Positions 43,513 to 59,323 of a stretch of 64,000 nt of DNA are shown here, in pieces (position 1 is the stretch's first letter; each line of letters starts with the position of its first letter). The stretch is from Minisyncoccota bacterium (lineage in GTDB: Bacteria > Patescibacteriota > Minisyncoccia > Phycocordibacterales > UBA5272): the NCBI GenBank assembly GCA_018062965.1, contig JAGORG010000001.1:71488-135487 (forward strand), given 5' to 3'. The position numbers were made by a program, and so were the translations under genes. Below the pieces are notes generated by a model. That model saw nothing but the letters and a program-made list of their open reading frames with translations, was not told the DNA's origin and ran no database searches.

Positions 43513-43582
43513 TAGGCGATATGTTTCAATCGCCCGGTTGAGTCCGACTTATATTCCGCGTGGACTAGAGTGCGGGTGTTGT

Positions 43583-44014
43583 TCATTTCTGAACAACGGC
43601 TAAGAACTCATCCTGTCTTAAGGAACAGTCCCCTGTGAGGACCCTCTCCTTGCCCCCACAAACTTTCCACAAGAATCCTCCTGGATATCTCCGATGGTTC
43701 ATGGGCTCCATTGTTGCAAATCTTGACAATGTAGGATTGTGCGCCGCAAAAAGAAGGAGTTCGGGCAGTGTTGCTGAACGAAGTCCTGCTCCAGCTATTT
43801 TTCCCAAAATAGCCGCCCCTTCATCCCAGCGTGTTTCCCGGCATTGGCCATAGGATTGCAAGTGAGGCAAATCTACATCAATTTCACCCGCGCCTTGAAG
43901 GACATAGTTTAAAGCATCCCTCTCCCACGTCCTATCTATGACAAGGTTTGCCTCCCCAATCATCTCTTTAATGGTCATGTTGTAGGTGAAGATGATAGCC
44001 TGAGCTTGTTCCAT
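43583..44014 (-). CDS. Hypothetical protein (143 aa), paralog of 41396..41827, divergent from TrmB-like regulator 3
   Basis: Same length and conserved blocks as the paralog. Confidence 0.6.
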   Translation of the reverse strand: MEQAQAIIFTYNMTIKEMIGEANLVIDRTWERDALNYVLQGAGEIDVDLPHLQSYGQCRETRWDEGAAILGKIAGAGLRSATLPELLLFAAHNPTLSRFATMEPMNHRRYPGGFLWKVCGGKERVLTGDCSLRQDEFLAVVQK

Positions 44015-44181
44015 TTTGTTTCCTTAATGTACATTTAGTTCGGGAACCTTTCCTGAACTTTCTGGTAATATTGTACAACTTTGAAACACATTTGTCAATC
44101 ATAAAATTGACATTATTTTATTACATTATACATTGTAAAACAATGAAAATATGGTATACTAACAATAAATAATTTGACACT
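44015..44181. promoter_or_regulatory. Divergent promoter region with palindromes (AGTTCGGGAACCTTTCCTGAACT, TGTCAAT-N6-ATTGACA)
   Basis: Inverted repeats at 44037-44059 and 44093-44112. Parallels the 41828-41982 region. Confidence 0.4.
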
Positions 44182-44976
44182 ATGGAAATTATAAAACAGA
44201 AAAAGTCTAAAAAAGAGGTAGAAAACCTGTATGTTGAGAAACTCGCGGAACTTGGTTTTTCTAAAGCGGAGAGCCTTATTTATGTATATTTATTGGAAAA
44301 AGGGTCTGAAGCGCTAGTTTCTAAGATAGCGGTCGCTACAGGTATGCATCGTCAGCAGGTGTATCTTGTACTCCCTAAGCTCGTAGAATCTGGAGTCGTT
44401 GAAGAGGTTAAAGAAGGAAAACTCACTAGATATAAAGCTAGGCCGCCGCAGAGTCTGGAAAGGGTTGTGAGGCGTAAGGTTACTCTGGCGGAAGATGTAG
44501 CTCAGGAGCTCGAGAAGATTTCAAAACTTGGTAACGAACAGGAATTTGAAGCGGTTATTGGAGAAAAAGCATATCGAGCTTACGATATAGAGCGCGCAAA
44601 AAATATGAAAGAAGGGGATGTTCAGTACATCATAGGCTCCTCCTCTGATGAATATCTGGTAGCGATGGGGGATGCGTACGAAAAGGAGTATGTTCCAATC
44701 CTTGCCTCAAAGAATGTAAAAACTTATTATATTGCGCCGGAAAGTCAAAAGTTTAGAAAGGATTATGTCAGCGAGCGTCAGCACTTCGAAGTAAGAGTTC
44801 TTTCTAAAATGAAACAGAATTCCATTACTACCATGATTCAGGGAGATAAACTTATATTCTATTCAAACGTGAAGCCGCTCAGTATCTATATTATTACGTC
44901 TAAGAAAGTTGCAGAAAGTTATAGGGAATTCTTCATGATGCTGTGGGAGATGGCAGAAGAAGCAGAAAAGAAATAA
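44182..44976 (+). CDS. TrmB-family-like HTH transcriptional regulator (paralog 3)
   Basis: YVEKLAELGFSKAESLIYVYLLEKGSEALVSKIAVATGMHRQQVYLVLPKLVESGVVEEV. C-terminus FFMMLWEMAEE. Confidence 0.65.
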   Translation: MEIIKQKKSKKEVENLYVEKLAELGFSKAESLIYVYLLEKGSEALVSKIAVATGMHRQQVYLVLPKLVESGVVEEVKEGKLTRYKARPPQSLERVVRRKVTLAEDVAQELEKISKLGNEQEFEAVIGEKAYRAYDIERAKNMKEGDVQYIIGSSSDEYLVAMGDAYEKEYVPILASKNVKTYYIAPESQKFRKDYVSERQHFEVRVLSKMKQNSITTMIQGDKLIFYSNVKPLSIYIITSKKVAESYREFFMMLWEMAEEAEKK

Positions 44977-44990
44977 TATATACTACTTAC

Positions 44991-45614
44991 ATGAAACTCA
45001 CTATTTATACTGACGGATCGTCGCGGGGGAATCCGGGGCCGGGGGGTTGGGCGGCCATTTTGGTTACTCATCAAAATGGCGAGACCACAGACCACAGAGC
45101 ACAGAACACAGAACATACGGAATACGACGAAGTGATAGAGCTTGGTGGGGCAGAACAGCATACGACAAATAATCGTATGGAACTTCTCGGGGCTATTAAA
45201 GCGTTACAAGCTGTTAGTCTTCAGCCTATAGCTGGTAGCGATACGGACTCGAATTCAGAAAAGCTACAAGCTACAAGCTACAAGCTACAATCTGTTGAAG
45301 TGTTTACCGATAGTGAATACGTAAAGAAGGGGATGAGCGTTTGGATCACAGGGTGGATTGCTAAGGGATGGAAGACGTCTACAAAGAAGCCAGTGCTCAA
45401 CCAAGACCTGTGGGAAGAACTTCATGCTGAAGAAAAGCGATTGAAAGACGCAGGGGTTGCTGTTACGTGGACATACGTGAAGGCTCATGTGGGTATCGCA
45501 CTGAATGAACGAGCGGATACTATTGCTACAAGTTGTGCGGATAGTGTTGTAGAAAATACTGCAAGTAATTTGCAACTATATCGCGGACCAAAGTCTGATT
45601 ATCCATATTTTTAA
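44991..45614 (+). CDS. rnhA: Ribonuclease HI with an internal insertion containing a heptanucleotide tandem repeat
   Basis: MKLTIYTDGSSRGNPGPGGWAAIL...TNNRMEL...TDSEYV...W..KGWK...VKAH.GI..NERAD. Start at the internal Met of the 44943 ORF. Confidence 0.85.
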   Translation: MKLTIYTDGSSRGNPGPGGWAAILVTHQNGETTDHRAQNTEHTEYDEVIELGGAEQHTTNNRMELLGAIKALQAVSLQPIAGSDTDSNSEKLQATSYKLQSVEVFTDSEYVKKGMSVWITGWIAKGWKTSTKKPVLNQDLWEELHAEEKRLKDAGVAVTWTYVKAHVGIALNERADTIATSCADSVVENTASNLQLYRGPKSDYPYF

Positions 45615-45629
45615 TCCACCTTTTGCTCT

Positions 45630-47132
45630 ATGCAGATGATACACCTACGAACAATTATTTTTGTCGTAGGTATTTTGTTTGGTATATGGGCAGGTTACGG
45701 CTCGCAGTATGCTAGCGATATAGCTCTCGTACTCGGTGCACTTTTTGTTATCCAGAGTGGTCTATGGATGTTGGGTAGCTATCTACAAAAGAATGTACTT
45801 GTACCAAGTGTGATGGCGCTATTTTCACTCGGTGTGATACTCGGTATCGTACGTGTGCAAATGGAACCCGAACCGCAAGCGCTCATATGTGAACGTGCGT
45901 GTACGATAGAAGCATACGTTGCTCGTTCGCCAGAGCAAAAAGATTCATATCAAGAACTCGTACTTGAAGTTGATGACGAACATGCACGAGTGCTCGTGCG
46001 CGCGCCACTGTATCCGGAGTATCAGATAGGGGACAGACTTTCTGTTACGGGAGTCATACGCACGCCACAGGCCATCATGCCGCACGGTGACAAACAGTTT
46101 TTTGATTATGGAGCGTATCTTCAAACACGCTCTATCGGAAGCGAAAGTTTGTATCCAAAGATAACTGTCATTGATGAAGAAGCTCACACATTCACACACC
46201 TTCTTGGTCGACTAAAAGAAGACATGGTTGCACGTATCGATAGCGCTATTGATTTACCTGCGTCATCGCTTGCATCTGGTATGTTGTTTGGAAACGCATC
46301 GATGTCAAAAGAACTCACTGAGACATTTCGTGTGGCTGGACTGTCACACATCGTTGTTCTTTCAGGATTCAATATCGCAATTATTATTTCATTTGTACTT
46401 TTGCTGTTGCGTGTTGTGCCACTGTTTGTGCGTGTGCTCATCGCATCACTTTCGGTTGTCATGTTTGTGGTGATGGTAGGAGGAGAGGCAAGTGTAATAC
46501 GTGCGACCCTCATGGCAGGAGTGTCACTACTTGCACTCGTGCTTGGGCGAGAGTATGTCGCGCGTCAGGCATTGTTTGTTTCGCTTCTATGTATCATGAT
46601 GTATGAACCGTATGCACTCTTGCACGACGTGTCGCTTCATCTTTCGTTTATCGCAACGATGGGTATCGTGTACATGAGTGGTGTACTACAAACAGTCTTG
46701 TCACGATATGTTTCATCTCGATATCTCGTTGAGATATGCGCGACAACACTCGCTGCATACATAGCTACGCTACCATACCTGATGCACACATTTGGCGTCG
46801 CATCACTCTACGCACTCTTTGCAAACATACTCGTTGTACCGTGGGTGCCTGTTGCGATGCTGCTATCATTTTTGGTAGTTGTGTTTTCTTTTATTTCGCA
46901 GACACTCACAGCTCTATGTGCGTATGTCGTGAGCATGCTCCTTGACCTGATGATAGCTGTTGCAAAGCAGGTGAGCAGTCTCCCGTATGCGTCTATTTCG
47001 GTGTCACTCTCATACAGTCAGATGATAGTTGTCTATGTTGTACTCATCTGCGTGTATCTGTATGTGAGCTCTCGTGCGAGTGATGAAACGTATCGCACAA
47101 AACCTGACGATGAAGATACCTTTATATATTAA
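45630..47132 (+). CDS. comEC: ComEC/Rec2-family membrane channel domain protein (lacks the MBL domain, which is encoded separately at 47742)
   Basis: Polytopic membrane protein with a competence-domain-like pattern (GLSHIVVLSGFNIAII). Confidence 0.7.
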   Translation: MQMIHLRTIIFVVGILFGIWAGYGSQYASDIALVLGALFVIQSGLWMLGSYLQKNVLVPSVMALFSLGVILGIVRVQMEPEPQALICERACTIEAYVARSPEQKDSYQELVLEVDDEHARVLVRAPLYPEYQIGDRLSVTGVIRTPQAIMPHGDKQFFDYGAYLQTRSIGSESLYPKITVIDEEAHTFTHLLGRLKEDMVARIDSAIDLPASSLASGMLFGNASMSKELTETFRVAGLSHIVVLSGFNIAIIISFVLLLLRVVPLFVRVLIASLSVVMFVVMVGGEASVIRATLMAGVSLLALVLGREYVARQALFVSLLCIMMYEPYALLHDVSLHLSFIATMGIVYMSGVLQTVLSRYVSSRYLVEICATTLAAYIATLPYLMHTFGVASLYALFANILVVPWVPVAMLLSFLVVVFSFISQTLTALCAYVVSMLLDLMIAVAKQVSSLPYASISVSLSYSQMIVVYVVLICVYLYVSSRASDETYRTKPDDEDTFIY

Positions 47133-47710
47133 GCTTCGAGGCGTTTAGAAATGGAGCGATACACGATGAACAAGATAGTGAGTCCGATGACGAGTGAGAT
47201 AGCTAAGAATGATGAAAGTGAAACATGTTCGCCGAACGTGTATCCGAGATAGATGATACCTGTTGCCCAGATGAGTGATGCGCTAAGAAAAATAAATGAC
47301 GTTGTATAGAGTGGTGTGCGAGACATGCCAGCTATAACAGGGATGAACGCTTTGACAGATGGAGTGAGCTTGCCGAGAAACAGCCACCAGATTCCGCGAC
47401 GAGAAAATGTGTCATGAAGTGCTGAGTGAACTTTTGAAAACGTAGCTTCGTCCATCATGAGGAGTTTGCGTGCAAGTGGTCGCTCATATTTTTTTACAAG
47501 GAGATAGGTGATGATATTTCCAACTGTGTTGCCGAGTCCTCCTGCGATGACTGCCCATGCGAAGATGAGATTTCCAGTGCTAACAAAATATCCTACGATG
47601 AGGTAGAGGATTTGAGAAGAAGGAAAATTGAAAACACCATTTGCGAGCATGAGAATAAAAATCGCAACGTATGTTCCTGAACTGATGAGTGCGTGGAGAT
47701 CCATATACAC
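47129..47710 (-). CDS. dedA: DedA/SNARE-associated family membrane protein
   Basis: GNLIFAWAVIAGGLGNTVGNIITY...ERPLARKLLMMD...RRGIWWLFLGKLTPSVKAFIPVIAG matches the DedA pattern. Confidence 0.8.
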   Translation of the reverse strand: MYMDLHALISSGTYVAIFILMLANGVFNFPSSQILYLIVGYFVSTGNLIFAWAVIAGGLGNTVGNIITYLLVKKYERPLARKLLMMDEATFSKVHSALHDTFSRRGIWWLFLGKLTPSVKAFIPVIAGMSRTPLYTTSFIFLSASLIWATGIIYLGYTFGEHVSLSSFLAISLVIGLTILFIVYRSISKRLEA

Positions 47711-47741
47711 TCAGTCTACCATTTTGAGATATCATTAGCTT

Positions 47742-48644
47742 ATGAAAGATTTCTTGGAAGAGAAATGGGAAAGCATACGAGAGATGGTTCGGTCGTATGG
47801 AAAACTTGCTAGCTCGTGTGTGTTGGTTTTTATCGCGGTGTGGTTTTTGGTGGAGAGTGCGCAGTGCTTTGTACCGCGTACACTTCGAGTGACTTTTTTT
47901 GATGTTGGACAAGGGGATGCGATTTTTGTGCAGACACCAGGAGGACACGACATGCTGATTGATGGCGGACCAAACAACAAGGTACTTGAAGGTCTCGGAA
48001 AAAAGATGAAGTACAGTGACACATCGGTTGATGTGGTGGTCGCTACACATGCGGATGCAGATCATATAACAGGACTCATTCCGGTATTTGAAAAGTACGA
48101 CGTCAGTCATGTAGTTGAGTCACCAGTGGATGGAGCATCTGCAACATTTTATGATCTTGCGCGTCATGTACAAAAAGAAGCGTCACATACTTACGTTGCA
48201 CGACGAGGAGACATAATTGATTTTGGTGACGGGGTCATCGCGCATGTGCTGTATCCGGGATCATACGTGTCACCAAAGACAGATACAAATGATGCATCAG
48301 TGTCGCTGCTACTTGTGTATGGTGAGCATTCATTTTTGCTCACAGGAGATTTGACGAGTGCGTACGAGTCACAGATAGTGCGTGATGTTGTTCCCAAGAA
48401 CGTAACCGTCTACAAAGCAGGGCATCATGGAAGCAAAACTTCAAGCAGTGAAGCACTACTCAAACGTATCAAACCAGAGTATGCAGTGATAAGTGTGGGG
48501 AAAGATAATCGGTATGGACATCCTGCGCCAGAAGCGCTCACTCGACTAGAGAAACATGCACAAGAAATACTTTCGACGATTGATCATGGAGCAATTAGTT
48601 TTGTAAGTGACGGGAGAATACTCGAAGTAGAGAGAGAAAAGTAA
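47742..48644 (+). CDS. ComEC C-terminal metallo-beta-lactamase-fold domain protein
   Basis: TFFDVGQGDAIFV...HADADHITG...GHHGSKTSS. Resembles the ComEC MBL domain as a stand-alone ORF with its own TM. Confidence 0.78.
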   Translation: MKDFLEEKWESIREMVRSYGKLASSCVLVFIAVWFLVESAQCFVPRTLRVTFFDVGQGDAIFVQTPGGHDMLIDGGPNNKVLEGLGKKMKYSDTSVDVVVATHADADHITGLIPVFEKYDVSHVVESPVDGASATFYDLARHVQKEASHTYVARRGDIIDFGDGVIAHVLYPGSYVSPKTDTNDASVSLLLVYGEHSFLLTGDLTSAYESQIVRDVVPKNVTVYKAGHHGSKTSSSEALLKRIKPEYAVISVGKDNRYGHPAPEALTRLEKHAQEILSTIDHGAISFVSDGRILEVEREK

Positions 48645-48660
48645 ATGCGAATGGATTGCA

Positions 48661-48693
48661 AAAAAAGAGCGACATCTTAGATGTCGCTCTTTC
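48661..48693. terminator. Bidirectional terminator
   Basis: agagcgacatct-tag-atgtcgctct. Confidence 0.6.
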
Positions 48694-48703
48694 AGGATTC
48701 TGA

Positions 48704-49063
48704 TCAGTAGGTGAAGAATTGATGATGGGCAACCGTGAGTATTAGTCTTGCTTTTTCTCGGGCTTCAGGTGTTTCCCATGTTCCTTCAAATACTAAAGGG
48801 GAAGTTTCCCTAAGGTTATAGAACGTCGGGCGGTGCGGCTCGTCTTTCGGGGCGACAAGAAATTTGAGAGTCCCTTCCTCCTGGTTCCATTTCCAGTGAG
48901 TAATGAGGCTGATCACTCGTTGCTCATCCACCATCTCTCCGTCACACTTCTCGTTTTGGCTATTCTGCGTTTTTTGTCCCACAACACCGTGGAACAAGAC
49001 CATATTGAAGTTCTTTTTTTCTGGATCGCTTTCTCTGAAGGTTCCATTAATAAAGATCGCCAT
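48704..49063 (-). CDS. Hypothetical protein (start placed at MAIFINGTF)
   Basis: The ORF-track extension would overlap the terminator hairpin at 49131-49170. Confidence 0.5.
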   Translation of the reverse strand: MAIFINGTFRESDPEKKNFNMVLFHGVVGQKTQNSQNEKCDGEMVDEQRVISLITHWKWNQEEGTLKFLVAPKDEPHRPTFYNLRETSPLVFEGTWETPEAREKARLILTVAHHQFFTY

Positions 49064-49187
49064 GCTGCATCCTTTTACTTTCCTGAGCAATGTGTCAGGG
49101 CTGGTTGGAATCCTATACTTTGGTGAGTAGAAAGTCAAAAGCGCGACCGAAGGTCGCGCTTTTGACTTATTGCTCATTAGAGCTTGG

Positions 49188-49391
49188 CTATAGTTTAATC
49201 TGAAGGTGAAGGCCTTTCTTCATGCAAGATGTACAGATCTTTACACGAGGACCGTTTGGAATGCGAGCCCACTGGAGGTTTGGGTACTTGCGGCGATCTC
49301 CGGCTGGGTTGAATTTTGTAGCACGAACAGAGTTGCTGTATTTTCCAACAACCTTAGAGCCTTTTTCGCACATTGGACAGATGTTTGCCAT
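49188..49391 (-). CDS. rpmB: 50S ribosomal protein L28
   Basis: ICPMCEKG...SNSVRATKF...RKYPNLQ matches the L28 pattern. Start at MANICPM. Confidence 0.75.
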   Translation of the reverse strand: MANICPMCEKGSKVVGKYSNSVRATKFNPAGDRRKYPNLQWARIPNGPRVKICTSCMKKGLHLQIKL

Positions 49392-49473
49392 AGAATTTAC
49401 GTTAGTCGTCATATCCTACCACATATACATGCGTTTCGCAACATGAAGGTCACTCGTTTGGTATACTGCTCGA

Positions 49474-50097
49474 ATGCTTGAAACACTTACCATTTCACAC
49501 GTACTATTTACGTTTCTCATTGTTATCTTCTCGATTATCCTTCACGAAATAGCTCACGGCTATGCGGCCTATATTCAAGGGGACGAAACTGCCTATCGTG
49601 CGGGTCGGTTAACCCTTAACCCACTACCTCATATCGACCCTGTTGGATCTGTGATTGTACCGTTTCTTGCGTTTTCTGTGGCGGGAACATTTTTTGGATG
49701 GGCAAAGCCTGTTCCGTATAACGTTCACAATGTGCGTGGACGGTTTGGAGAGGTGTTTGTGGCTTCAGCTGGGGTTTTGACCAACTTGGCACTTGCAATC
49801 GTTGCTGGAACCGCCTTTAAAATCTTTATGATGCAAGGATTGCTCACAGAAACGCTAGCCCAAAACATATTTACAGTTATCGCGGTCAACCTGTCACTCT
49901 TTTTGTTTAACCTCATACCTATTCCACCGTTTGACGGAATGGCTATTATCCAATCACTCTTTCCTCGTTTGCGTATTTCTTCTGCGTTTATTTACAACCC
50001 TATATACCTCATTCTCGCTATTGTGGTTGCGTCTACTATCTTTAGCGCGCTTGCACCGGTACTCTTTTCTCTTGTAAAAGACATACTTCTTTTCTAG
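49474..50097 (+). CDS. Site-2-protease-family (M50) zinc metalloprotease-like membrane protein
   Basis: HExxH LHEIAHGYAAY in the first TM region. Polytopic. Confidence 0.7.
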   Translation: MLETLTISHVLFTFLIVIFSIILHEIAHGYAAYIQGDETAYRAGRLTLNPLPHIDPVGSVIVPFLAFSVAGTFFGWAKPVPYNVHNVRGRFGEVFVASAGVLTNLALAIVAGTAFKIFMMQGLLTETLAQNIFTVIAVNLSLFLFNLIPIPPFDGMAIIQSLFPRLRISSAFIYNPIYLILAIVVASTIFSALAPVLFSLVKDILLF

Positions 50098-50159
50098 ATT
50101 AGAATAGTTTTCCCCAGGTTTGTCCTTAATAATGTCTTTTATAGGGGTATACTGTATGC

Positions 50160-50651
50160 ATGATGAAATCATCTGCAAAACAATCATCACGCACACGTTC
50201 TACGGCTTCAAAACAAAGCACGCCACGCACGCGCTCTACGCGTACGTCGCAGTCAGTCGGCTCTCGACTTGGGAGAAGTGTGAAAAAGGTTGCAAAGCAG
50301 ACATTGCGAGACATGTTGCTCTCGAAAACGTTTCATACCTCGTTTAAAGTATTGGCATGGGTCTCGCTATCTGTAGGGGTTGTGTACGGAGGATTTATTG
50401 CAGTTGATCATACGTTTGCAAATCAGGTGGTTGTTTCAAAATCTGAGATTGTACGAAGTGCAGCAAAACATATCATGCTTCCAGAAGGAGAGCCGGTAAC
50501 TGTTGTTCGTGTTCAAGATGCTGAAACTCTCAAAAAGCAACAAGGCTTTTATACCAATGTGAAAATAGGTGACTATGTCATCGTTTATCCAGATATGGTG
50601 GTTATTTATGACCTTCGTAATGACAAGATAGTCGCCACAAAGGCTCTCTAA
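50160..50651 (+). CDS. Hypothetical membrane-anchored protein with S/T/R-rich N-terminus
   Basis: TM segment VLAWVSLSVGVVYGGFIAV. Confidence 0.5.
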   Translation: MMKSSAKQSSRTRSTASKQSTPRTRSTRTSQSVGSRLGRSVKKVAKQTLRDMLLSKTFHTSFKVLAWVSLSVGVVYGGFIAVDHTFANQVVVSKSEIVRSAAKHIMLPEGEPVTVVRVQDAETLKKQQGFYTNVKIGDYVIVYPDMVVIYDLRNDKIVATKAL

Positions 50652-50735
50652 GGGTGAATCTACTCTCAAGAATCGAAGACCAGGGCTTGCAAAAAAACGA
50701 TATATTTGGTATAGTTCCAACCACTATTTACGGAT

Positions 50736-51167
50736 ATGCCAACAATCAATCAACTCGTTAAGAAGTCTCGCGCAAAGGTGATCAAGAAATCACGTTCTAT
50801 TGCTATGGGGCGCGGATTCAACGCAATCCAAAACAAGCCTAACTTTTACAATTCACCATTTAAGCGTGGTGTGTGTACAAAGGTAACAACAACAACTCCA
50901 AAGAAGCCGAACTCTGCGCTTCGAAAGATTGCCCGTGTACGCCTTACAAACGGTATGGAAGTAACAGCATACATTCCAGGAGAACAGCACAAGCTTCAGG
51001 AACACTCAGTGGTTGTACTACGCGGTGGACGTGTGAAGGACTTGGCGGGGGTACGTTATCACATTGTTCGCGGACGATTGGATGCAACAGGAGTAGATAA
51101 GCGCCGACAGGGACGATCACTCTACGGAGCAAAGCGACCAAAAGCAGGAGCTCCTGCGAAGAAGTAA
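50736..51167 (+). CDS. rpsL: 30S ribosomal protein S12 (with a short insertion)
   Basis: [10 protein letters not shown]...[10 protein letters not shown]...GGRVKDLPGVRYH. Confidence 0.95.
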
Positions 51168-51176
51168 TCTCAAAAC

Positions 51177-51210
51177 AAAAGCGGAACCGAAAGGTTCCGC
51201 TTTTGTTTTT
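51177..51210 (+). terminator. Terminator hairpin GCGGAACCGAAAGGTTCCGC (copy 1 of 3)
   Basis: Identical stem-loop also at 51696..51729 and 52021..52055. Confidence 0.7.
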
Positions 51211-51244
51211 AAAGTCTTACAACCTTTTGATATACTTCAGTTGT

Positions 51245-51676
51245 ATGCAAACAATTAAACCTTTTATTAATAACCTTAGACACGCTGGGCCTTTAGTAAT
51301 TATTTTAGCTGCACTGGCTGGGTATGTGGCGAATATGGTTTGGTACTATATTCCTTTCATTAGCAACATTTACTTTGGCGACACGGTACCTCCAACATTT
51401 GGTGCAATGCCGTTTGCTATTCTTGCTTGGTATATAGGCAACTGTATATTAAATACCATTGGGGTCGCTCTTCTCATCAACAAGAAAGGAGCGTGGAACG
51501 GTTTCTTGGTTGGTTTAATTGTTTCTCTTTTTTTCTCAGGCACAGCGTACCTTGCTTCTTATTTGGGAGCAGGAACACCACTTCCGCCTCTTGAGATTTC
51601 CCTCATTATCACTATAGGGAGTCTACTCTTTTACGCAGTTCCTTCTACTCTTATCGGATACCTACGAAAAGAGTAA
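51245..51676 (+). CDS. Hypothetical 4-TM membrane protein (paralog A) inserted between rpsL and rpsG
   Basis: C-terminus LIGYLRKE. Paralogous to the protein at 52073..52483 (C-terminus ILGYFRKD). Confidence 0.5.
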   Translation: MQTIKPFINNLRHAGPLVIILAALAGYVANMVWYYIPFISNIYFGDTVPPTFGAMPFAILAWYIGNCILNTIGVALLINKKGAWNGFLVGLIVSLFFSGTAYLASYLGAGTPLPPLEISLIITIGSLLFYAVPSTLIGYLRKE

Positions 51677-51695
51677 TCATTCAGGTTATTACTAC

Positions 51696-51729
51696 AAAAG
51701 CGGAACCGAAAGGTTCCGCTTTTGTTTTG
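51696..51729 (+). terminator. Terminator hairpin GCGGAACCGAAAGGTTCCGC (copy 2 of 3)
   Basis: Repeat of 51177..51210. Confidence 0.65.
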
Positions 51730-51768
51730 TTGGTGATAGTATTAAAGAAACTGTACAAGGAGATCTTT

Positions 51769-52014
51769 ATGGTTGCTTTTTTAAAGCAAAGAGGTGGCAA
51801 GTGGAAGTGCGTCGGTTCAAAAGAAGCGAAGCGGCGCCTTGCGGAGGCGTTGAAAAAAGAGGAGAATCACTGGAACAGTCTCACACCTGAACAGCAACAG
51901 GAGAAAAGGGGTATGTACGCCGCCTCTGCCTTAAAACTAAAGCGCGTAGTCGCAGCTCGGAGAGAATCTCTCAAAGTCGACCCCAGGTTCTATCGAACGC
52001 CGATAGATTGTTGA
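51769..52014 (+). CDS. Hypothetical small basic protein
   Basis: SD aaggag 7 nt before the ATG. 81 aa, K/R-rich. Confidence 0.5.
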   Translation: MVAFLKQRGGKWKCVGSKEAKRRLAEALKKEENHWNSLTPEQQQEKRGMYAASALKLKRVVAARRESLKVDPRFYRTPIDC

Positions 52015-52020
52015 CAGTTA

Positions 52021-52055
52021 AAAAATCGGAACCGAAAGGTTCCGCTTTTGTTTTT
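52021..52055. terminator. Terminator hairpin CGGAACCGAAAGGTTCCG (copy 3 of 3), bidirectional
   Basis: Between convergent genes. Confidence 0.65.
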
Positions 52056-52072
52056 ATAGAGTATCTACGAAC

Positions 52073-52483
52073 CTAGTCTTTTCTAAAGTATCCAAGGATT
52101 GCAGCAGGGAGGACATACTGCGCTGCTCCGTAGATGATAACAAAAAGTCCGATGAGTAGAGATGGGAGTGTTTTGTCAATCGTAGATGTGATGACATCAG
52201 AGATGGTGACGATAAAGAGAAGTGCTGCACCAATGAAAGCACCGTGTACTACGCTCTTTTTACCAATAAGTGTTGCTAAACCTACAGATTTGATGACGCT
52301 TGCTACAAGAAGTGGAAGTATTCCAAGGAAAAATGGTGCAAGCCCTGTCCATGTGGTTGTTGTTCCAGTCAAAATAATATTAAAGATATTAGACAAAAGG
52401 AACAATACAACTGCTGTTGTGATAGATGCTGTTGCAACTGATAAAAGTGACTGCTGTTTTAGGTTATGAATGAATGTTTGCAT
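52073..52483 (-). CDS. Hypothetical 4-TM membrane protein (paralog B)
   Basis: Paralog of 51245..51676. Confidence 0.5.
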   Translation of the reverse strand: MQTFIHNLKQQSLLSVATASITTAVVLFLLSNIFNIILTGTTTTWTGLAPFFLGILPLLVASVIKSVGLATLIGKKSVVHGAFIGAALLFIVTISDVITSTIDKTLPSLLIGLFVIIYGAAQYVLPAAILGYFRKD

Positions 52484-52639
52484 ATGAGTATGTTTCCAGT
52501 ATATACCGTTTTGCTTTTTCTTTATATGTATTGTAGTATAAGGCGACTTGGTAACAAGTAGAGAAGTAATTACTGAAATAACCTCTTGCAGAGTACCGTC
52601 TACTTCCGGGAACGTTTACGCAAGAACATCTATACAACA

Positions 52640-53110
52640 ATGCGACGAAAAGTTAAAAATCGAAATATGGTTAGTCCAGACGGACGCTATGACTCAACAA
52701 AAATCTCAAAGTTTATCAACTATGTGATGATTGGAGGAAAGAAATCAACAGCTCAGGAAATCGTGTACGGAGCGCTTGATGTTATTAAGGAAAAGCAAAA
52801 AGTAGAAGACCCACTAGAAGTTTTCAACCTTGCTCTCACTAACGCAGGACCTCTTACTGAAGTTCGTTCACGCCGTATCGGTGGAGCAAACTACCAGGTT
52901 CCTCGTGAAGTTCGTGAAGAACGACGCTTCATGCTCGCACTTCGTTGGATTCTCGAAGCAGCTAACTCAAAGAAGGGTAAGGCTATGAAGTTCAAGCTTG
53001 CAGACGAGCTCATCGCTGCAGCAAACAACGAAGGTTCTGCTGTGAAGAAGAAAGAAGATACTCACCGAATGGCAGAAGCCAACAAGGCGTTCGCGCACTT
53101 TGCTTGGTAA
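52640..53110 (+). CDS. rpsG: 30S ribosomal protein S7
   Basis: MRRKV..R...PD..Y.S..ISKFIN..M.GGKKS.A..IVY.A...I and the conserved S7 core. Start at the internal Met. Confidence 0.93.
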
Positions 53111-53130
53111 TTCGCTTCCGGTTCTTAATA

Positions 53131-53166
53131 CAAAAGCGCAGGTCGTAGACCTGCGCTTTTGTATTT
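53131..53166 (+). terminator. Intrinsic terminator after rpsG
   Basis: aagcgcaggtc-gta-gacctgcgctt plus T-run. Confidence 0.7.
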
Positions 53167-53227
53167 GCTAAAACGAGCTAAGTTAGCTAGTGTTTGTATC
53201 AGGTGAACTTTTAAGGAGTCGATAAAC

Positions 53228-53812
53228 ATGGAACTTCTAGCTTTTTTGGGTTGGCTTTGGTCGTGGGGCTGGAAAATTGCCCTGTGTGTTCTTGTTGCAG
53301 TTGTTCTGTTCTCCATAGTCTCTGAATTAAGGTGGCAGAAAAGGTATCGGTTCTATATCCCTCATCCAATTGATTGGCTAAGTGTCATGAATACTGAGCG
53401 GTGGGATTCGACCAGAAAACTCAAACAGCTCATGAACAGTAAGCTCAACGTAAAGCTTTTCAGGCTGTATGAAACCAAAGACTACAAGGTACTACCCTGG
53501 TATAGGTTTCTCGGTCCACATACTCCCGCTGCTTTCTACAATGACTTGGTCTGGCTTGAACAACAAGGGCTTGTTGAGTGTCGAAGAATGGTGTATGACA
53601 AAAATGGTAGAGAATGCCAAGATGTCGATTTTGCTATTCGCGATGAGCAAGGCAAAACCATTGGTTTCGACAAAGAGATGATGGGAAACTACTCTTTGCC
53701 AACGTATGAATACAAAAAAACATCATCAGGCGGCGGAATAAAAAGAAATACCGCTCACGCTCGCCAGGAAGATGGGGGGTTTTCTGGTGATTTAGAGGGC
53801 TCTCGTGCATAA
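53228..53812 (+). CDS. Hypothetical membrane-anchored protein (insert in str operon)
   Basis: W-rich N-terminal TM segment. No recognised domain. Confidence 0.5.
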   Translation: MELLAFLGWLWSWGWKIALCVLVAVVLFSIVSELRWQKRYRFYIPHPIDWLSVMNTERWDSTRKLKQLMNSKLNVKLFRLYETKDYKVLPWYRFLGPHTPAAFYNDLVWLEQQGLVECRRMVYDKNGRECQDVDFAIRDEQGKTIGFDKEMMGNYSLPTYEYKKTSSGGGIKRNTAHARQEDGGFSGDLEGSRA

Positions 53813-53850
53813 ACCAAACCGCTACTTGTAGCGGTTTTACTTTTGGGGTA
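53811..53850 (+). terminator. Repeated terminator aaaccgctacttgtagcggtttt (copy 1 of 2)
   Basis: About 44-nt segment identical to 54313..54356. Confidence 0.65.
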
Positions 53851-53887
53851 GAGTACACGTAATTTGATCTTTTTGAGGGGTTAATTC

Positions 53888-54298
53888 ATGAACACGTTTC
53901 TAATTATTCTTGTCATTCTTGTGGTCTTATGTTGCATTCCAGGTGCTTTTTTCTTAAAGAAGCACCTGATGATTCTTTCTGCGGCTAAAGAACTCGGCCT
54001 TATAGACCGTGGACTGGTAAAAAAAGAGATCTCTGAATATGGTCCTGGTGTTTGGCGTTGTTGCCTATGCAATACCCGATCGCGAGCAGGTGTTCTTAAG
54101 GAAAGTAGACGTGCTGTTAAGTGGTGCTACGTTTGTATCAGGATATATGATGGGCAAGGGGGTGGCGATGATGGCCCTGGCAGGCGAGAGGGGTTGCCCC
54201 CAGACCCTTCTCCTGAAGGGGAGCCGGCACCACCAGAAGTCGTCAAGCAAACAAGAGAAGTTTTGGAGAGGATTGGTAGGAATACCACCCCAAACTAG
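53888..54298 (+). CDS. Hypothetical TM protein with Cys-rich segment and GC-rich Pro/Gly tail
   Basis: WRCCLCNTRSR...WCYVC is a zinc-ribbon-like Cys cluster. About 58% GC. Confidence 0.5.
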   Translation: MNTFLIILVILVVLCCIPGAFFLKKHLMILSAAKELGLIDRGLVKKEISEYGPGVWRCCLCNTRSRAGVLKESRRAVKWCYVCIRIYDGQGGGDDGPGRREGLPPDPSPEGEPAPPEVVKQTREVLERIGRNTTPN

Positions 54299-54315
54299 AC
54301 TTGTCTGCTACACAT

Positions 54316-54354
54316 AAACCAAACCGCTACTTGTAGCGGTTTTACTTTTGGGGT
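54316..54354 (+). terminator. Repeated terminator aaaccgctacttgtagcggtttt (copy 2 of 2)
   Basis: Duplicate of 53811..53850. Confidence 0.65.
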
Positions 54355-54395
54355 AGTGTAAGTGGGTAAGTTCAACCAATTTGGAGATATAAACC

Positions 54396-54836
54396 ATGAA
54401 TCAACTCGTTCAACCTGCTTTTCCCGGTCTTGTGAAATTTGACGAAGATGGGGCCCCTCATCAGGTGATTGCTCCACTTGCTTCCCGCCGTCTTCTGGAA
54501 GAATGGCAAGAAACCCCGCTTCCAGCTTTCCAGGAACTGTTTTCGAAACGTGCAGGCGAAGAATTCGAGCAATATTGGCCGAAGGCAGAGTCGCTTTATC
54601 GTGAATATGGCCCTGTCTTGAGTTGTCCACTCGTTTCAGCATTTTTGTATGCCGCTGAAGACAGGCGGCTGCCGTGGTGTATTGAAGTTCTTGAACAGCA
54701 TCTGAAAGATGATCTCCACTTTCAGCACCCGGAACTTCGGGGTAGGTTGATCATCGGAGATGCCCCACAAAACCGCTCGTATCTTTTTATTGTTTACAAA
54801 ATCATCAAGGAGCTTCGTCCAAGCCTTTTCAAATGA
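54396..54836 (+). CDS. Hypothetical protein (GC about 52%)
   Basis: 146-aa ORF with a strong SD-like ggagata before the ATG. Confidence 0.5.
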   Translation: MNQLVQPAFPGLVKFDEDGAPHQVIAPLASRRLLEEWQETPLPAFQELFSKRAGEEFEQYWPKAESLYREYGPVLSCPLVSAFLYAAEDRRLPWCIEVLEQHLKDDLHFQHPELRGRLIIGDAPQNRSYLFIVYKIIKELRPSLFK

Positions 54837-54925
54837 TGTTTCATTGCCGGAACGCCGCTTTTGTGGTAGCATGTCGCTATTGCCTAAGCGGCTTTTTTAT
54901 TTCTTAAAAACACTTATTTATCACT

Positions 54926-57070
54926 ATGGCTCGCGATTATCCTCTTAATAAAACACGTAACTTTGGAGTTATTGCTCACATCGACGCTGGAAAGACAACA
55001 ACTACAGAACGTATTTTGTTTTACACCGGTGTTTCTCACAAAATCGGTGAAGTGCACGATGGTGCAACTGTGATGGACTGGATGGAACAGGAACGAGAAC
55101 GAGGTATTACTATTACCTCTGCTGCTACAACAGCGTTCTGGAACCCAACATACATGCCCGCCGCTGATGTTTCAAAGAAATGCCGCTTCAACATCATCGA
55201 CACCCCAGGTCACATCGACTTTACTATCGAAGTAAAGCGTTCTCTTCGTGTGCTTGACGGTGCGGTTGTTGTGTTTGACGGGGTTGCTGGAGTAGAGCCA
55301 CAGTCAGAAACAAACTGGAGATACGCATCGGATGCTATGGTGCCTCGTATTTGTTACATCAACAAACTCGACCGTATGGGTGCAAACTTCGACAAAGCAT
55401 ACGCGTCTATTCTCGACCGTCTTTCAAAGAAAGCAGTGCGAATGCAAATGCCAATCGGAGAAGAAGAAAACTTTGACGGTATCATCGACCTCCTCACTAT
55501 GAAGGAAATTAAGTTCACAGGGGACAAGGGTAAGGATGTGTCTTCAGTTGAAATTCCTGCTGAGCTTCTCGAAGAAGCAAAGAAGCGTCGCGCAGAAATG
55601 ATTGAAAAAATCGTTGAAACTGACGAAACACTCATGACTGAATACCTCGAAGGAAAGGAATTTTCTGTTGAAGTATTGAAGGCGGCTATTCGTAAAGCAA
55701 CAATTGCAAACGAACTCTTTCCAGTATTTTGTGGTTCATCACTCAAGAACCGCGGTGTTCAGCTCGTACTTGATGCCGTTGTTGACTACCTCCCATCTCC
55801 ACTTGATATTGCTCCTCCAAAGGGAATCGATCCAGCAACTGGCGAACAAGCTATCGTTGAGGTTTCAGATACCGCTCCATTTGCAGCGCTTGCGTTTAAG
55901 TCTATGGCTGACCCATTCGTAGGACAGCTTACATTCTTCCGTGTGTATGCTGGAACACTTGAAGCTGGTTCATATATCTATAACTCTACAAAAGAAAAGA
56001 AGGAACGTGTATCACGTATCTTGCGTATGCACGCAAACGAACGTGAAGAAGTAAAGGTTGTGTATGCTGGAGAAATCGCAGCTGCGGTAGGTCTCAAAGA
56101 TACTATCACTTCAGACACTATGTGTACTGAAGAACACCCAATCATTCTCGAACGTATTGTTATTCCAGAATCTGTGATCTCAATGCGTGTAGAACCAAAG
56201 ACAAAGGCAGACCAAGAAAAAATGGGTATCGCGCTTTCAAAGCTCGCTATCGAAGACCCAACATTCCGTGTTGCTTCAGACCCTGAAACACTCGAGACTA
56301 TCATCTCAGGTATGGGTGAACTTCACTTGGATATCATCGTTGATCGTATGAAGCGTGAGTTTAACGTAGAAGCAAATACTGGTAAGCCTCAGGTGGCATA
56401 CAAGGAAACCATCATGGGTTCTGCTTCAGGTGAAGGAAAGTATGTAAAGCAGTCCGGTGGACGTGGACAGTACGGACACGTAAAGATCAATATCCGTCCA
56501 ATTGACTACTCAATTGCAACAGAAGATCTTCCAAAGAATACAAAGCGATATGACGCATTTGAATTCGTAAACTCTCTCAAGGGAGGTGCGATTCCACAAG
56601 AATTCGTGCCAGCTGTAGAAAAAGGTCTTCGTGAATCTATGGATCGCGGTACGCTCGCTGGATTTAAGATGGTGGACGTATCATGTGAAGTGTACGACGG
56701 ATCTTTCCACGAAGTGGACTCTTCTGAAATCGCCTTTAAATTGGCTGCTGGAATGGCGCTTGCTGATGCTGTGTCAAAAGCAAAGCCTGTTATCCTCGAA
56801 CCAATCATGAAGGTGGAAATCGTTACACCAGACAAGTTCTACGGAGATATCACTGGAAACCTTTCATCAAAGCGTGGACAAATTGAAGGGATGGATGAAC
56901 GTGGACAGGACAAGGTGGTGCGCGCTATGGTTCCACTTTCTGAAATGTTCGGTTACGTGAACAATCTTCGTTCTATGACAGAAGGACGTGCGACATTTAC
57001 GATGGAATTCGGAAAGTACGATGTAGTTCCCGCAAACATTGCAAAGGATATTGCAGAAAATAAGAAGTAA
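54926..57070 (+). CDS. fusA: Elongation factor G
   Basis: [15 protein letters not shown]...DTPGHIDFT...NKLDR and full-length EF-G domain order. Confidence 0.96.
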
Positions 57071-57087
57071 TCTACTATTTCTGAATA

Positions 57088-57119
57088 GAAAAAGCGCCGC
57101 GAAGCGGCGCTTTTTTGTT
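57088..57119 (+). terminator. Intrinsic terminator after fusA
   Basis: agcgccgc-gaa-gcggcgct plus T-run. Confidence 0.7.
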
Positions 57120-57120
57120 G

Positions 57121-57333
57121 CTAACGATTGGTCGGTGCAACAGGGAAAACAAAAAGAGTAGGGTCTTCTTTTTTGAGGATATCTGTCCAGTTAAACGCCT
57201 TTTGTTCTGGTCTTTGATTAACCTCAGACCTGACTTCCCGTTTTCGTTTAGCTGCAAATCTTTTTATCTCTTCAAGATCTTGATGATATCCGTAGTCAAA
57301 AACATCAGAACTCTTCCCGTCAGATTCGTACAT
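57121..57333 (-). CDS. Hypothetical small protein (70 aa)
   Basis: ORF between fusA and tuf on the opposite strand. Weak support only. Confidence 0.3.
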   Translation of the reverse strand: MYESDGKSSDVFDYGYHQDLEEIKRFAAKRKREVRSEVNQRPEQKAFNWTDILKKEDPTLFVFPVAPTNR

Positions 57334-57473
57334 ACTTGCCTCCAGTAAGAACTAATATCCTAGACATACTAACATTTTTTATTGAGATGTTTCACCTTCT
57401 AAAATAGTTTTTTGCAAAGAGAATCATTGACATTTAGATACTTTTTACGCAGAATGGTGCCAACTGATCATTT

Positions 57474-57905
57474 TTGAAAACAGGGGGCGTCATGAATCAA
57501 ATCCACATACCCTTTTTGAACAAAGGTATACATGTCGAGGTTTCTTGGGAAATTCTAAGAGAGGTTGCTGACTTTGTTCAAAACCTGGATTGTGAGTGCA
57601 GTCCAGAAAGATTACTTGCTCGTGAGTTGAGTAGGGCGATTGAACCTTTGTGGGGTGGTGACAACTTAGGAAAAGTTGTTGTTTTCAATGCCCATGCATC
57701 TACAGGCCTTAATTACGAAGACAGAGGCAGAGAGTTTCCATTTTCTGATTGGCTTTCACAGGCGAGAGGGGATATTTTGGTTATTATGTGCTGTTTCCAG
57801 CCAAGTCTCCTTTTAACGCAAGCTGATAAGATGAGAGAAAGAGGTTTTACAAGGGCTTTCTGGACTAACCATAAAGAAACAAAGTTGATCGAATTGCCTA
57901 TATAG
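57474..57905 (+). CDS. Hypothetical protein inserted between fusA and tuf
   Basis: 143-aa ORF. SD-like gggggcg before the ATG at 57492 as alternative start. Terminator-like hairpin aacccgc...gcgggtt at about 57917-57945. Confidence 0.45.
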   Translation: MKTGGVMNQIHIPFLNKGIHVEVSWEILREVADFVQNLDCECSPERLLARELSRAIEPLWGGDNLGKVVVFNAHASTGLNYEDRGREFPFSDWLSQARGDILVIMCCFQPSLLLTQADKMRERGFTRAFWTNHKETKLIELPI

Positions 57906-58129
57906 CGCTTTCAAAACCCGCCCCCGTAAGGTTGCGGGTTTTTATTATAGGAAATAATTGCGTTTTTTTTAAAGATATGGTAAGATTGCACGTATTCGCT
58001 TAGCGTCCTGACTATATTGCTTGGCTAGGCGCGTAAGTTCAGTTTATTGTTTTGTTTACTTCATTTATTTAATATCTAATTGAGTCCAATATCTCCCACA
58101 AGGGGACGACACGACTTCTACAAAAACAT

Positions 58130-59323
58130 ATGGCAGAAAATTTCGATCGCTCTAAACCACACGTAAACGTAGGTACCATTGGTCACGTTGACCACGGAAA
58201 GACTACGCTTACAGCGGGTATTCTTAACGTACTTCACCTCAAGGACGCTACTATCAAGATGAAAGATGTTGATGACATCGACAAGGCTCCAGAAGAAAAG
58301 GCGCGTGGTATTACTATTTCGCTTTCTCACTCAGAATACTGGACAGATGCTCGTCACTACGCTCACATCGACGCTCCAGGTCACGCTGACTACATCAAGA
58401 ACATGATTACTGGTGCCGCACAGATGGACGGTGCTATTCTCGTGGTTGCTGCAACAGATGGTCCTATGCCACAAACTCGTGAACACATTCTCCTTGCAAA
58501 GCAGGTGGGTGTACCTCGAATGGTTGTGTTCCTTAACAAGTGTGACATGGTTGACGATGAAGAAATGATCATGCTCGTTGAAGAAGAAATCCGCGAACTC
58601 CTTACCAAGCAAGGGTTTGATGGTGCTAACACTCCAGTTATTCGTGGTTCAGGTCTTAAGGCTTCTGAAGCTACAGACATCAATGATCCATGGGCACAGA
58701 AGATTGTTGAACTTATGAACGCGCTTGACACTTGGATTCCAATTCCAGAACGTGACACAGCAAAGCCATTCCTTATGCCAGTTGAAGACATCTTCACTAT
58801 CGAAGGTCGTGGAACTGTGGTAACAGGACGTATCGAACGAGGAATTCTTAAGCTTAACGAAGAAATCGAAATCGTTGGTCTTAAGGATACTGTTAAGACA
58901 ACAGTTACTGGTATCGAAATGTTCAACAAGTCTCTCCCAGAAGGACAGGCTGGAGACAACGCTGGTATCCTTATCCGTGGTATCAAGAAGGAAGACATCA
59001 TGCGTGGACAGGTTCTTGCAAAGCCAGGTTCTGTAAAGCCACACACAGAATTCGAATGTGAAGTGTACATCCTTAAGAAGGAAGAAGGTGGACGTCACAC
59101 TCCATTCTTGAATGGTTACAAGCCACAGTTCTACGTACGTACAACTGACGTTACAGGAGAAGTTACACTTCCTGCTGGAACAGAAATGGTTATGCCAGGA
59201 GACACTATCAAGTTCACAGTTAAGCTCATGGCTCCTATTGCTCTTGAAGAACAAGGACGCTTCGCTATCCGTGAAGGAGGTAAGACTGTTGGTGCTGGTG
59301 TTGTTACTAAGATCATTGCGTAA
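58130..59323 (+). CDS. tuf: Elongation factor Tu
   Basis: [13 protein letters not shown]...DAPGHADY...NKCD. 397 aa. Confidence 0.97.

Follow-up and report, generated by a model that had tools for sequence, protein, structure and literature searches.

An interrupted str gene cluster in a Minisyncoccota bacterium with strain-variable genes in its three gaps

How does a string of translation genes that is normally contiguous come to be held apart by hypothetical genes? The order rpsL-rpsG-fusA-tuf of the str operon is a textbook case of conserved gene order, ribosomal proteins serve as phylogenetic markers, and in Escherichia coli the operon is autoregulated by S7 at the rpsL-rpsG junction. The question is raised by a stretch of 64,000 nucleotides, hereafter the window, from a Minisyncoccota bacterium (assembly GCA_018062965.1, contig JAGORG010000001.1, positions 71,488 to 135,487 of the forward strand), which belongs to a clade of the candidate phyla radiation (CPR) that has opened this string. 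The answer that we consider probable is a clade-specific break-up of str into promoter-gene-terminator units, the gaps between which act as hotspots of accessory-gene turnover through recombination at terminators and in flanking genes.

Anatomy of the opened str cluster

The gene order of the canonical str operon is kept in the window, as is a conserved, structured-looking leader before rpsG, but canonical spacers measure tens of nucleotides and those of the window 1.0-1.8 kb. In the other genomes fetched with S7, the median spacers are 56 nt for rpsL-rpsG (n=73 genomes), 52 nt for rpsG-fusA (n=54) and 88 nt for fusA-tuf (n=25); the corresponding values in the window are 1472, 1815 and 1059 nt, and a comparable expansion is confined to the closest relatives, those with an S7 identity of at least about 80%. 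An earlier note, made from the letters of the window, had described a normally contiguous operon split three times by hypothetical genes, and both statements are borne out by these lengths. The contiguity of the canonical operon is lost in the window both in spacer length and in the hairpins with U-runs that follow rpsL, rpsG and fusA, and one of the eight hypothetical genes in the spacers, A3, is antisense. We refer to the three gaps, in the order above, as slots 1, 2 and 3, to their contents as cargo, and to loci from other assemblies by L-numbers; within its own genome, the locus was viewed against the 64-kb window. The genes, which in this 'Candidatus Pacebacteria/Paceibacterota' metagenome-assembled genome bear locus tags KBC50_006xx, are as follows.

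50736-51167, plus strand: rpsL, ribosomal protein S12 (Pfam PF00164, E=2.9e-36)
51245-51676, plus strand: A1, 143 aa, four transmembrane (TM) helices, weakly DUF1761-like; absent from most strains
51769-52014, plus strand: A2, 81 aa, basic; known only from the window genome and one other assembly
52073-52483, minus strand: A3, 136 aa, four-TM paralogue of A1; found in every strain of the species
52640-53110, plus strand: rpsG, ribosomal protein S7 (Pfam PF00177, E=6e-58)
53228-53812, plus strand: B1, 194 aa, N-terminal TM helix; orphan confined to the species/genus
53888-54298, plus strand: B2, 136 aa, N-terminal TM helix, Cys-rich, Gly/Pro-rich tail
54396-54836, plus strand: B3, 146 aa, helical; uncharacterised family of about 105 aa with invariant H102 and R115
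54926-57070, plus strand: fusA, EF-G (Pfam domains on the called gene)
57121-57333, minus strand: C0, 70-aa open reading frame (ORF), called and conserved in strains
about 57492-57905, plus strand: C1, about 137 aa; start uncertain (the gene callers' TTG at 57516 gives 129 aa)
58130-59323, plus strand: tuf, EF-Tu
3' of tuf, plus strand: rpsJ and rplC

Slot 1 holds two convergent four-TM paralogues, A1 and A3 (29% identity, E=6e-9), and the small basic A2, as the earlier note had it; the hypothetical ORFs that the note placed between fusA and tuf are C0, on the minus strand, and C1. None of the window cargo scored above threshold against Pfam, NCBIfam, PHROGs or PADLOC. In its 157-aa reading (51203-51676), A1 aligns with 111 of the 123 positions of PF08570 (DUF1761) at 24.7 bits, under the cutoff of 31, and DUF1761 hits are precomputed for two A1 variants; no PF08570 match was found for A3. 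For A2 and C1 those libraries gave no family match, and for C0 one weak PHROG match (E=6e-4). The 90% cluster of A2 has a single member, and B1 has just four homologue clusters among 5.8 billion proteins. An exhaustive profile search placed B3 in a small uncharacterised family, unmatched in Pfam, with the motif LE.H...L.(F/Y)QHP..RG and its invariant His and Arg (proteins P0173-P0201); its AlphaFold model (predicted local distance difference test score 79) found no fold match in the PDB (best Foldseek E-value 1.6). Nine B3-type repeats occur within a single protein of 1996 aa. A tRNA scan of the str region found none, and Rfam, run on this region and three relatives, returned only sub-threshold matches to terminator-like parts of small RNA models. 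Cargo in the clade often encodes membrane or secreted proteins; any function at the cell surface is conjecture, and plausibly such genes take part in the surface or host interactions of episymbionts.

The cargo resembles its host in composition. GC content is 39.5% in A1, 50.0% in A2, 39.9% in A3, 44.3% in B1, 47.9% in B2, 48.1% in B3, 39.9% in C0 and 41.7% in C1, as compared with 43.3% for the window, 47.9% for rpsL, 44.7% for fusA and 45.5% for tuf. The two genes at 52-58% GC that had been reported between rpsG and fusA are not found: B2 and B3 sit at 48%, like rpsL, and about 51% is reached in sub-segments of the inserts only. A GC-deviant origin of the cargo was ruled out on this gene-level, host-like GC. 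The values of dN/dS (0.11 for A1, 0.18-0.20 for B1, 0.17 for B3 and 0.39 for B2) identify these as real coding genes, and the cargo is under purifying selection.

Cargo always lies between the putative terminator of the upstream gene and the promoter-like block of the downstream gene. The elements on which this description rests are the following.

50687-50715, plus strand: promoter-like site of rpsL (TTGCAA, 17 nt, TATAGT, with TG)
51172-51209 (repeat 51177-51214), plus strand: hairpin copy 1, 17-bp stem, -26.5 kcal/mol, z=-9; putative rpsL terminator and left joint of the A1-A2 block
51694-51725 (repeat 51696-51733), plus strand: hairpin copy 2, between A1 and A2, 14-bp stem, -23.7 kcal/mol
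52022-52059, no strand assigned: hairpin copy 3, -13.3 kcal/mol; putative bidirectional terminator for A2 and A3 and right joint of the A1-A2 block
52511-52639, plus strand: promoter-like site of rpsG (TTGCTT, 17 nt, TAGTAT, at 52511-52539) and conserved 5' leader (GGAGTACC...GGGAAC)
53127-53165, plus strand: putative rpsG terminator hairpin, 18-bp stem, -28.3 kcal/mol, frame ACAAAAGCG...CGCTTTTGT
53808-53855, plus strand: 48-nt repeat copy 1, comprising the B1 stop codon, a terminator-like hairpin and a putative promoter (TTGTAG, 17 nt, TAGAGT)
54313-54360, plus strand: 48-nt repeat copy 2, 98% identical to copy 1
54854-54900, plus strand: hairpin and U-run before fusA, -23 kcal/mol; conserved in 6 species whatever the upstream cargo
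57089-57115, plus strand: putative fusA terminator hairpin, -20.2 kcal/mol
57958-58129, plus strand: promoter-like site of tuf (TTGCGT, 17 nt, TAAGAT, with TG) and conserved 5' untranslated region (UTR) of about 140 nt

In every species compared, rpsL, rpsG and tuf are preceded by conserved promoter-like blocks with a -10 element of the type TGnTAnnAT. Upstream of rpsL, TTGCA and TGGTAnnAT are conserved in 7 species; the leader block of rpsG is conserved in 9 species regardless of upstream cargo, its -10 block aligning in the window, L002 and L149 only; and the tuf promoter/5' UTR block is conserved in 5-6 species downstream of differing cargo. Promoter-like motifs also appear to precede A1, A2, B1 and B2. 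Judged from their sequences, these motifs probably act as promoters and the hairpins as terminators.

Two unrelated repeat families mark the joints of the first two slots. The hairpin GGAACCGAAAGGTTCC occurs three times, all in slot 1 and nowhere else in the window (0.03 expected by chance), in agreement with the three copies among A1, A2 and A3 that had been noticed before. Its copies have 14-17-bp stems and a GAAA loop, extend to 38 nt, share a 30-nt core between copies 1 and 3, begin 5, 18 and 13 nt past stop codons and are followed by TTTTGTTTT; copy 3 has a single stem mismatch, a T at 52026. Stem-loop, U-run and position after a stop codon are those of predicted intrinsic terminators. 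The 48-nt repeat shares no sequence with this hairpin. It holds a weaker one (9-bp stem, CTTG loop, broken U-run) together with TTGTAG, 17 nt, TAG(A/T)GT, and may thus be a combined terminator and promoter module; the copies are spaced 505 nt apart and confined to the str region of the window. The duplication had been recorded earlier as 44 nt, and it is the length that needed amending. A frame ACAAAAGCG...CGCTTTTGT is common to the hairpins after rpsL, rpsG and fusA; of the six hairpins with this frame in the window, five are at 49.1-57.1 kb. Slot 3 departs from the description of every insert as bounded by duplicated terminators, as no duplicated hairpins are present at the borders of C0 and C1 and the two terminators there differ.

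Cargo exchange among strains and sister species

About 20 independent assemblies of the same species, collected by exact look-up of the S7 and S12 proteins of the window, carry differing cargo next to an identical S7 or S12. In most strains, rpsL leads directly to A3 across one hairpin with the left flank of copy 1 and the right flank of copy 3. The missing A1-hairpin-A2 block is exactly 845 bp long, and both its ends fall inside the 30-nt stretch common to copies 1 and 3; A1 is missing at at least 13 loci. L081 and L083 are without this block, yet they match the window at 100% in every gene from the site-2 protease gene S2P (49474-50097, upstream of rpsL) to B3, and strains without the block show no difference from the window over the roughly 8 kb that align around the insert. 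This is a recent, clean event, with no flanking single-nucleotide polymorphisms (SNPs) by which to tell insertion from deletion. In slot 2, L089 lacks exactly 505 bp, namely B2 and one 48-nt copy, with one copy remaining, and this is most simply a deletion because B2 is present at 88% nucleotide identity in the divergent strains L091 and L092.

Other strains show replacement or addition. An unrelated 123-aa ORF stands in place of B2 and B3 in L090 and L094, with the 5' and 3' flanks of B3 retained. In slot 3, genes of 222 aa and 365 aa (PG_binding_1) replace C0 and C1 in L083, while in L091 and L092 a TrmB-like gene follows fusA and C0 is replaced. An additional 71-aa helix-turn-helix (HTH) gene, with a terminator belonging to it, sits at the rpsG promoter of L087 and L088 (insertion at 52529-52539). 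Between rpsL and A3, L094 and L100 carry a 400-aa membrane protein and A1, without A2; in L094, A1 has 92% nucleotide identity to the window (dN/dS 0.11, dS 0.30) and A3 100% amino acid identity.

The divergence of the flanks bears on how such differences arise. Relative to the window, L083 has 0 SNPs per 250 nt over 48750-56000, 24-40 over 56000-59000 (a divergence of 10-16%, spanning the swapped fusA-tuf cargo) and then about 0, with recombination breakpoints at about 56000 in fusA and about 59000 in tuf. The swapped cargo is therefore part of about 3 kb of DNA that homologous recombination brought in, and the common insertion mechanism of the earlier note does not extend to the fusA-tuf cargo. 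Between the window and L094, dS is 0.06-0.07 for S2P, rpsL, A3 and rpsG as compared with 0.30 for A1 and 0.25 for B1; cargo and flanks thus have separate histories. In L091, whose B1 and B2 differ from the window by 10-12%, the two 48-nt copies show no difference between them and have one substitution in common (C in the window, A in L091), a case of concerted evolution, that is, of ongoing exchange between copies. What survives of the proposed small cassettes is that repeat-bounded units do behave as such, being exactly absent from some strains (845 bp for A1-hairpin-A2, in strains whose flanks are identical; 505 bp for B2 and one repeat, in one strain); the cargo is not GC-deviant, some of it is old and circulates in the clade, and dedicated insertion machinery was not found.

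A further identity break lies at about 48750, where L081, L082 and L083 are 7-15% divergent from the window upstream (44000-48750) and identical downstream; the population is strongly mosaic. In L095 (8306-12125), the B2 alignment ends at nt 278 and is followed by deoxynucleoside monophosphate kinase, repressor-like, endolysin and tail-fibre genes (PHROG hits), so that this block is either a prophage in slot 2 or a chimeric contig; for the tail-fibre protein, the viral-contig scan was empty.

Sister species keep the order ComEC, VTT, Lactamase_B, S2P, rpsL, rpsG, fusA, tuf and have unrelated cargo in the same slots (L001, L002, L136, L141, L143, L144, L147, L149). Relatives thus do not universally carry the same inserts; it is universal carriage, with host-like composition, that the earlier note would have taken as a sign of ancient lineage-specific genes.

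L141: slot 1, 433 aa; slot 2, 76 aa; slot 3, Fasciclin, HTH and three more
L143: slot 1, EEP nuclease and four more; slot 2, 195 aa; slot 3, DUF378, PG_binding_1, MGMT-like (PF01035 DNA_binding_1) and 163 aa
L144: slot 1, two genes; slot 2, two genes; the locus does not reach slot 3
L002: slot 1, 116 aa; slot 2, no clear gene; slot 3, 400 and 195 aa
L136: slot 1, 461-aa peptidoglycan (PG)-binding-like, 130-aa TM and 73-aa HTH; slot 2, no clear gene; the locus does not reach slot 3
L147: slot 1, A1-family gene (antisense) and EEP nuclease; slot 2, 191 aa; slot 3, TrmB-like after fusA, with tuf outside the locus
L149: slot 1, 183 aa and A1-family gene (antisense); slot 2, none; slot 3, PG_binding_1 and 358 aa

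Certain cargo is common to the corresponding slot of different loci: L001, L143 and L147 have the EEP nuclease, L087 and L136 the HTH gene, and L147 and L149 a member of the A1 family. The PG-binding family occupies slot 3 in L083, L143 and L149 but slot 1 in L136. Given this sharing across species, the slots are old and their turnover is continuing. The cargo cannot all be as recent as had been suggested, since the A1/A3 family and the EEP nuclease occur in slot 1 of several species and B2 in a divergent strain; A2, by contrast with A1, is not in L094.

The joints recur as well. L136 (S12 91.5% and S7 79.5% identical in amino acids) has three copies of the identical 30-nt hairpin in its rpsL-rpsG gap, and a cargo block of 1970 bp is bracketed there by direct repeats of 66 nt (2236-2301 and 4206-4271). 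The 116-aa gene of L002 has a hairpin on either side, the two being near-identical. Scanning metagenomes for the stem (AAAGCGGAACC, any 4-nt loop, GGTTCCGCTTT) gave 40 matches, 37 of them unrelated single terminators, the remainder being two other assemblies of the window's species and L136. In other species the rpsL terminator has the stem GCGCGACC...GGTCGCGC, which, with its loop, is also found at 49132-49168 in the window and in the A1-A3 gap of L094.

Two routes of recombination and the alternatives

We propose that the str cluster of a Paceibacteria-like CPR clade would no longer be one compact operon, with its gene order retained. Transcription of rpsL, rpsG and tuf would start at a promoter-like site belonging to each, and a strong terminator hairpin would close rpsL, rpsG and fusA; small self-contained units of promoter, ORF and terminator, mostly membrane, secreted or orphan genes, would be gained, lost and replaced in the three gaps. 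Along one route, recombination between short identical terminator copies (the 30-nt rpsL-type core; the 44-48-nt module after B1) would add or remove exactly the block between two copies and keep the copies homogenised. Along the other, ordinary homologous recombination anchored in the conserved translation genes would swap whole cargo sets between diverged strains. The enzyme would be the general recombination machinery, possibly fed by DNA uptake, ComEC being encoded 4 kb upstream, and the terminator copies presumably first arose together with earlier insertions.

Several points weigh against this proposal. The evidence for exchange comes from assemblies, in which neither read-level support nor a circular intermediate was seen, and 30 nt of homology is at the lower limit for RecA-type exchange. 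The proposal does not explain how a block first gained a hairpin copy at both ends. The comparison of the locus with the rest of its genome covers 64 kb rather than the whole. Treating rpsL, rpsG, fusA and tuf as separate transcription units is a prediction from sequence alone, and for fusA a convincing promoter was not found, with only 34 nt from the upstream hairpin to the ATG. As for the A1-A2 difference, many strains could have lost the block by deletion, or the window lineage could have gained it by insertion. Finally, vertical descent does not explain the identical derived hairpin of L136, whose S7 is 79.5% identical to that of the window as compared with 83-87% in L001, L002 and L143, which have another stem.

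The strongest competitor, which we nevertheless hold to be unlikely, is that these are old lineage-specific genes inherited vertically under one style of terminator, with strain differences reduced to occasional slippage deletions between similar terminators. Host-like GC, purifying selection on the cargo, the A1/A3 family and EEP nuclease in slot 1 of several species, the age of B2 with its deletion-like absence from L089, and the frame ACAAAAGCG...CGCTTTTGT shared by the clade's terminators all agree with such a history. It does not anticipate the replacements within one species (the unrelated ORF for B2 and B3; the 222- and 365-aa genes for C0 and C1) or the additions (the 400-aa gene before A1; the 71-aa HTH gene before rpsG); the identity of the repeats runs for 30-48 nt and takes in non-stem flanks as well as the B1 stop codon, far beyond a shared style, and dS in cargo is 4-5 times that of the flanks. 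We give clearly less credence to a dedicated integron- or att-like system, in which a recombinase would integrate and excise circular cassettes at terminator-like palindromes and duplicate the site each time. The whole hairpin copies that flank cargo in the window species (A1-A2 block, B2), L136 and L002 have the geometry expected if a circle were integrated through one crossover, two species with different cargo have an identical 30-nt hairpin, and of the 6 hairpins framed AAAGCG...CGCTTT in the window, 5 are clustered in the str region. Yet no integrase is in or beside the array. The sole tyrosine recombinase of the 64 kb, 35 kb away at 15384-16424, is Xer-type (226-235 bits with XerA/C/D models, as compared with 114.9 for the integron integrase model TIGR02249, whose cutoff is 265). 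The hairpins are perfect palindromes lacking extrahelical bases, bulges and a GTTRRRY core; the two repeat families are unrelated and recur nowhere else in the window; cargo has promoter-like sites of its own, with A3 and C0 on the opposite strand; the duplicated site is missing from the third slot and from the ORF-precise replacement in L090; and the stem-scan matches are, for the most part (37/40), single terminators unrelated to the locus. An integron proper was rejected, neither IntI nor attC being found.

In a variant of this idea that seems to us just as improbable, terminator palindromes would themselves be recombination sites, and a structure-directed activity would move cassettes at the terminators of the most highly expressed genes, duplicating the hairpin each time; on this view the ACAAAAGCG...CGCTTTTGT hairpins that follow rpsL, rpsG and fusA would be the diverged remnants of earlier events, and the locus an integrase-less, integron-like cassette platform in CPR bacteria. 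Least probable of all, to the point of being hardly tenable, is a conventional mobile element (insertion sequence, miniature inverted-repeat transposable element (MITE) or prophage) or an assembly or binning artefact. The B2 cut at nt 278 in L095, followed by endolysin and tail-fibre genes, and, in relatives, an element of about 105 nt that looks mobile and follows str genes would suit it. Against this, the window inserts lack transposases, terminal inverted repeats, short target duplications and PHROG or PADLOC hits, the block-flanking repeats are 30-66 nt long and comprise whole terminators, and both repeats are absent from the viral contigs scanned; an artefact is excluded by the recurrence of the arrangement in independent ENA, JGI, NCBI and Logan assemblies. 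Searches for an integrase, attC-like site, transposon ends or phage signal likewise found none for the window inserts.

Several known systems share features with the locus. It is a familiar concept that accessory genes can gather in chromosomal hotspots, or 'flexible islets', flanked by conserved core genes. The Listeria region lmo0443-lmo0449 is such a hypervariable hotspot between conserved genes (PMC5541211). The window shares with these the conserved flanks, the strain-variable interior and homologous exchange in the flanks (the L083 mosaic), and differs in lying inside the str cluster, which ranks among the most conserved gene strings of bacteria, with three adjacent slots of which two have terminator copies as joints. 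Integron arrays are alike in their single-gene units each followed by a palindromic site, exact presence or absence and near-identical sites within an array, and unlike in having IntI and attC where the window has hairpins resembling ordinary intrinsic terminators. Deletion, duplication and conversion between short direct repeats match the indel ends within 30-48-nt identical repeats and the concerted evolution of the two copies in L091; here, however, the repeats are functional-looking terminator (and promoter) modules, and the signature recurs around different cargo in three species. Repetitive extragenic palindromes and bacterial interspersed mosaic elements are also short repeated palindromes at gene 3' ends and possible recombination or insertion points, but the window has two to three local copies only, none elsewhere in 64 kb, and no gene for a Y1 transposase of the kind associated with such palindromes (RAYT-like) was recognised among its ORFs. 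The locus is thus an instance of the known hotspot between core genes, unusual in its place within str and in the recurrent terminator duplication; in the literature we found no description of str-operon interruption in CPR bacteria or of terminator-bounded cassettes. Its gaps serve the fast turnover of small membrane, secreted and orphan genes, and it offers a testable case in which near-invariant core genes and repeated terminators can be homology anchors that move accessory genes between diverged strains. A practical consequence is that synteny-based binning and annotation of CPR ribosomal clusters can mislead.

Leaders, flanking elements and other features of the window

The rpsG leader (52540-52639; invariant GGAGTACC ... 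GGGAAC) is also present in L001, L002, L136, L141, L143, L144, L147 and L149, and may be an S7 autoregulatory site. Simple tandem repeats separate it from the ATG in several relatives, with TCTAATG about 14 times in L143 (4085-4196) and CCATTAA-type repeats in L141 and L144. Between the hairpin and the start of fusA (54854-54925), neither a Shine-Dalgarno sequence nor a clear promoter was seen; fusA may depend on attenuator-like read-through or have a leaderless transcript. In L001 (5360-15357; S7 85% identical), the str cluster is physically broken: fusA and tuf are not within 10 kb downstream of rpsG, which is followed by a P-type ATPase, murB and other genes.

In relatives, the conserved element of about 105 nt directly follows the stop codon of rpsL, of rpsG or of fusA; it is not in the window. 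Copies are found at L094 6436-6538; L144 6683-6785, 6790-6889 and 8484-8586; L002 10484-10586 and 13148-13249; L141 11226-11312; and, weakly, L001 5379-5449. Its orientation is constant, the slot varies among genomes and one case is tandem. It folds as a long imperfect hairpin in which 11 of 27 predicted pairs covary among 5 copies, and no Rfam match was found; candidates for its nature are a mobile 3'-UTR module and a MITE-like element.

Another strain-variable slot lies upstream of S2P, occupied in the window by a 157-aa minus-strand ORF (48704-49177) and in other strains by ORFs of 119, 84 or 76 aa. The hairpin at its right border, 49132-49168, has the stem and loop of the A1-A3 terminator of L094, and its stem is also that of the rpsL terminators of L002 and L143; the start of the 157-aa ORF is doubtful because the ORF runs through this hairpin.

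Elsewhere in the window, repeat families at 26227-26804, 41027-41368 and 41772-44100 include a 248-nt repeat (86% identity) and copies of TTGAGAACTTGATAAAG. A 2.19-kb tandem duplication comprises a pair of genes: one of 143 aa, on the minus strand (41396-41827 and 43583-44014), and, on the plus strand, one for a TrmB-like regulator (41983-42786 and 44182-44976); TrmB-like genes are also variable cargo after fusA in L091 and L147. A GC-rich stretch (52-55%, about 13.8-15.3 kb) carries genes for proteins of 245 aa and 552 aa, the latter resembling an HSP90/histidine-kinase-type ATPase, and is followed by the Xer-type tyrosine recombinase at 15384-16424; the region 12968-16424 may be a small island. 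Further GC peaks lie at 30.5-31.0 kb and 41.2-41.8 kb.

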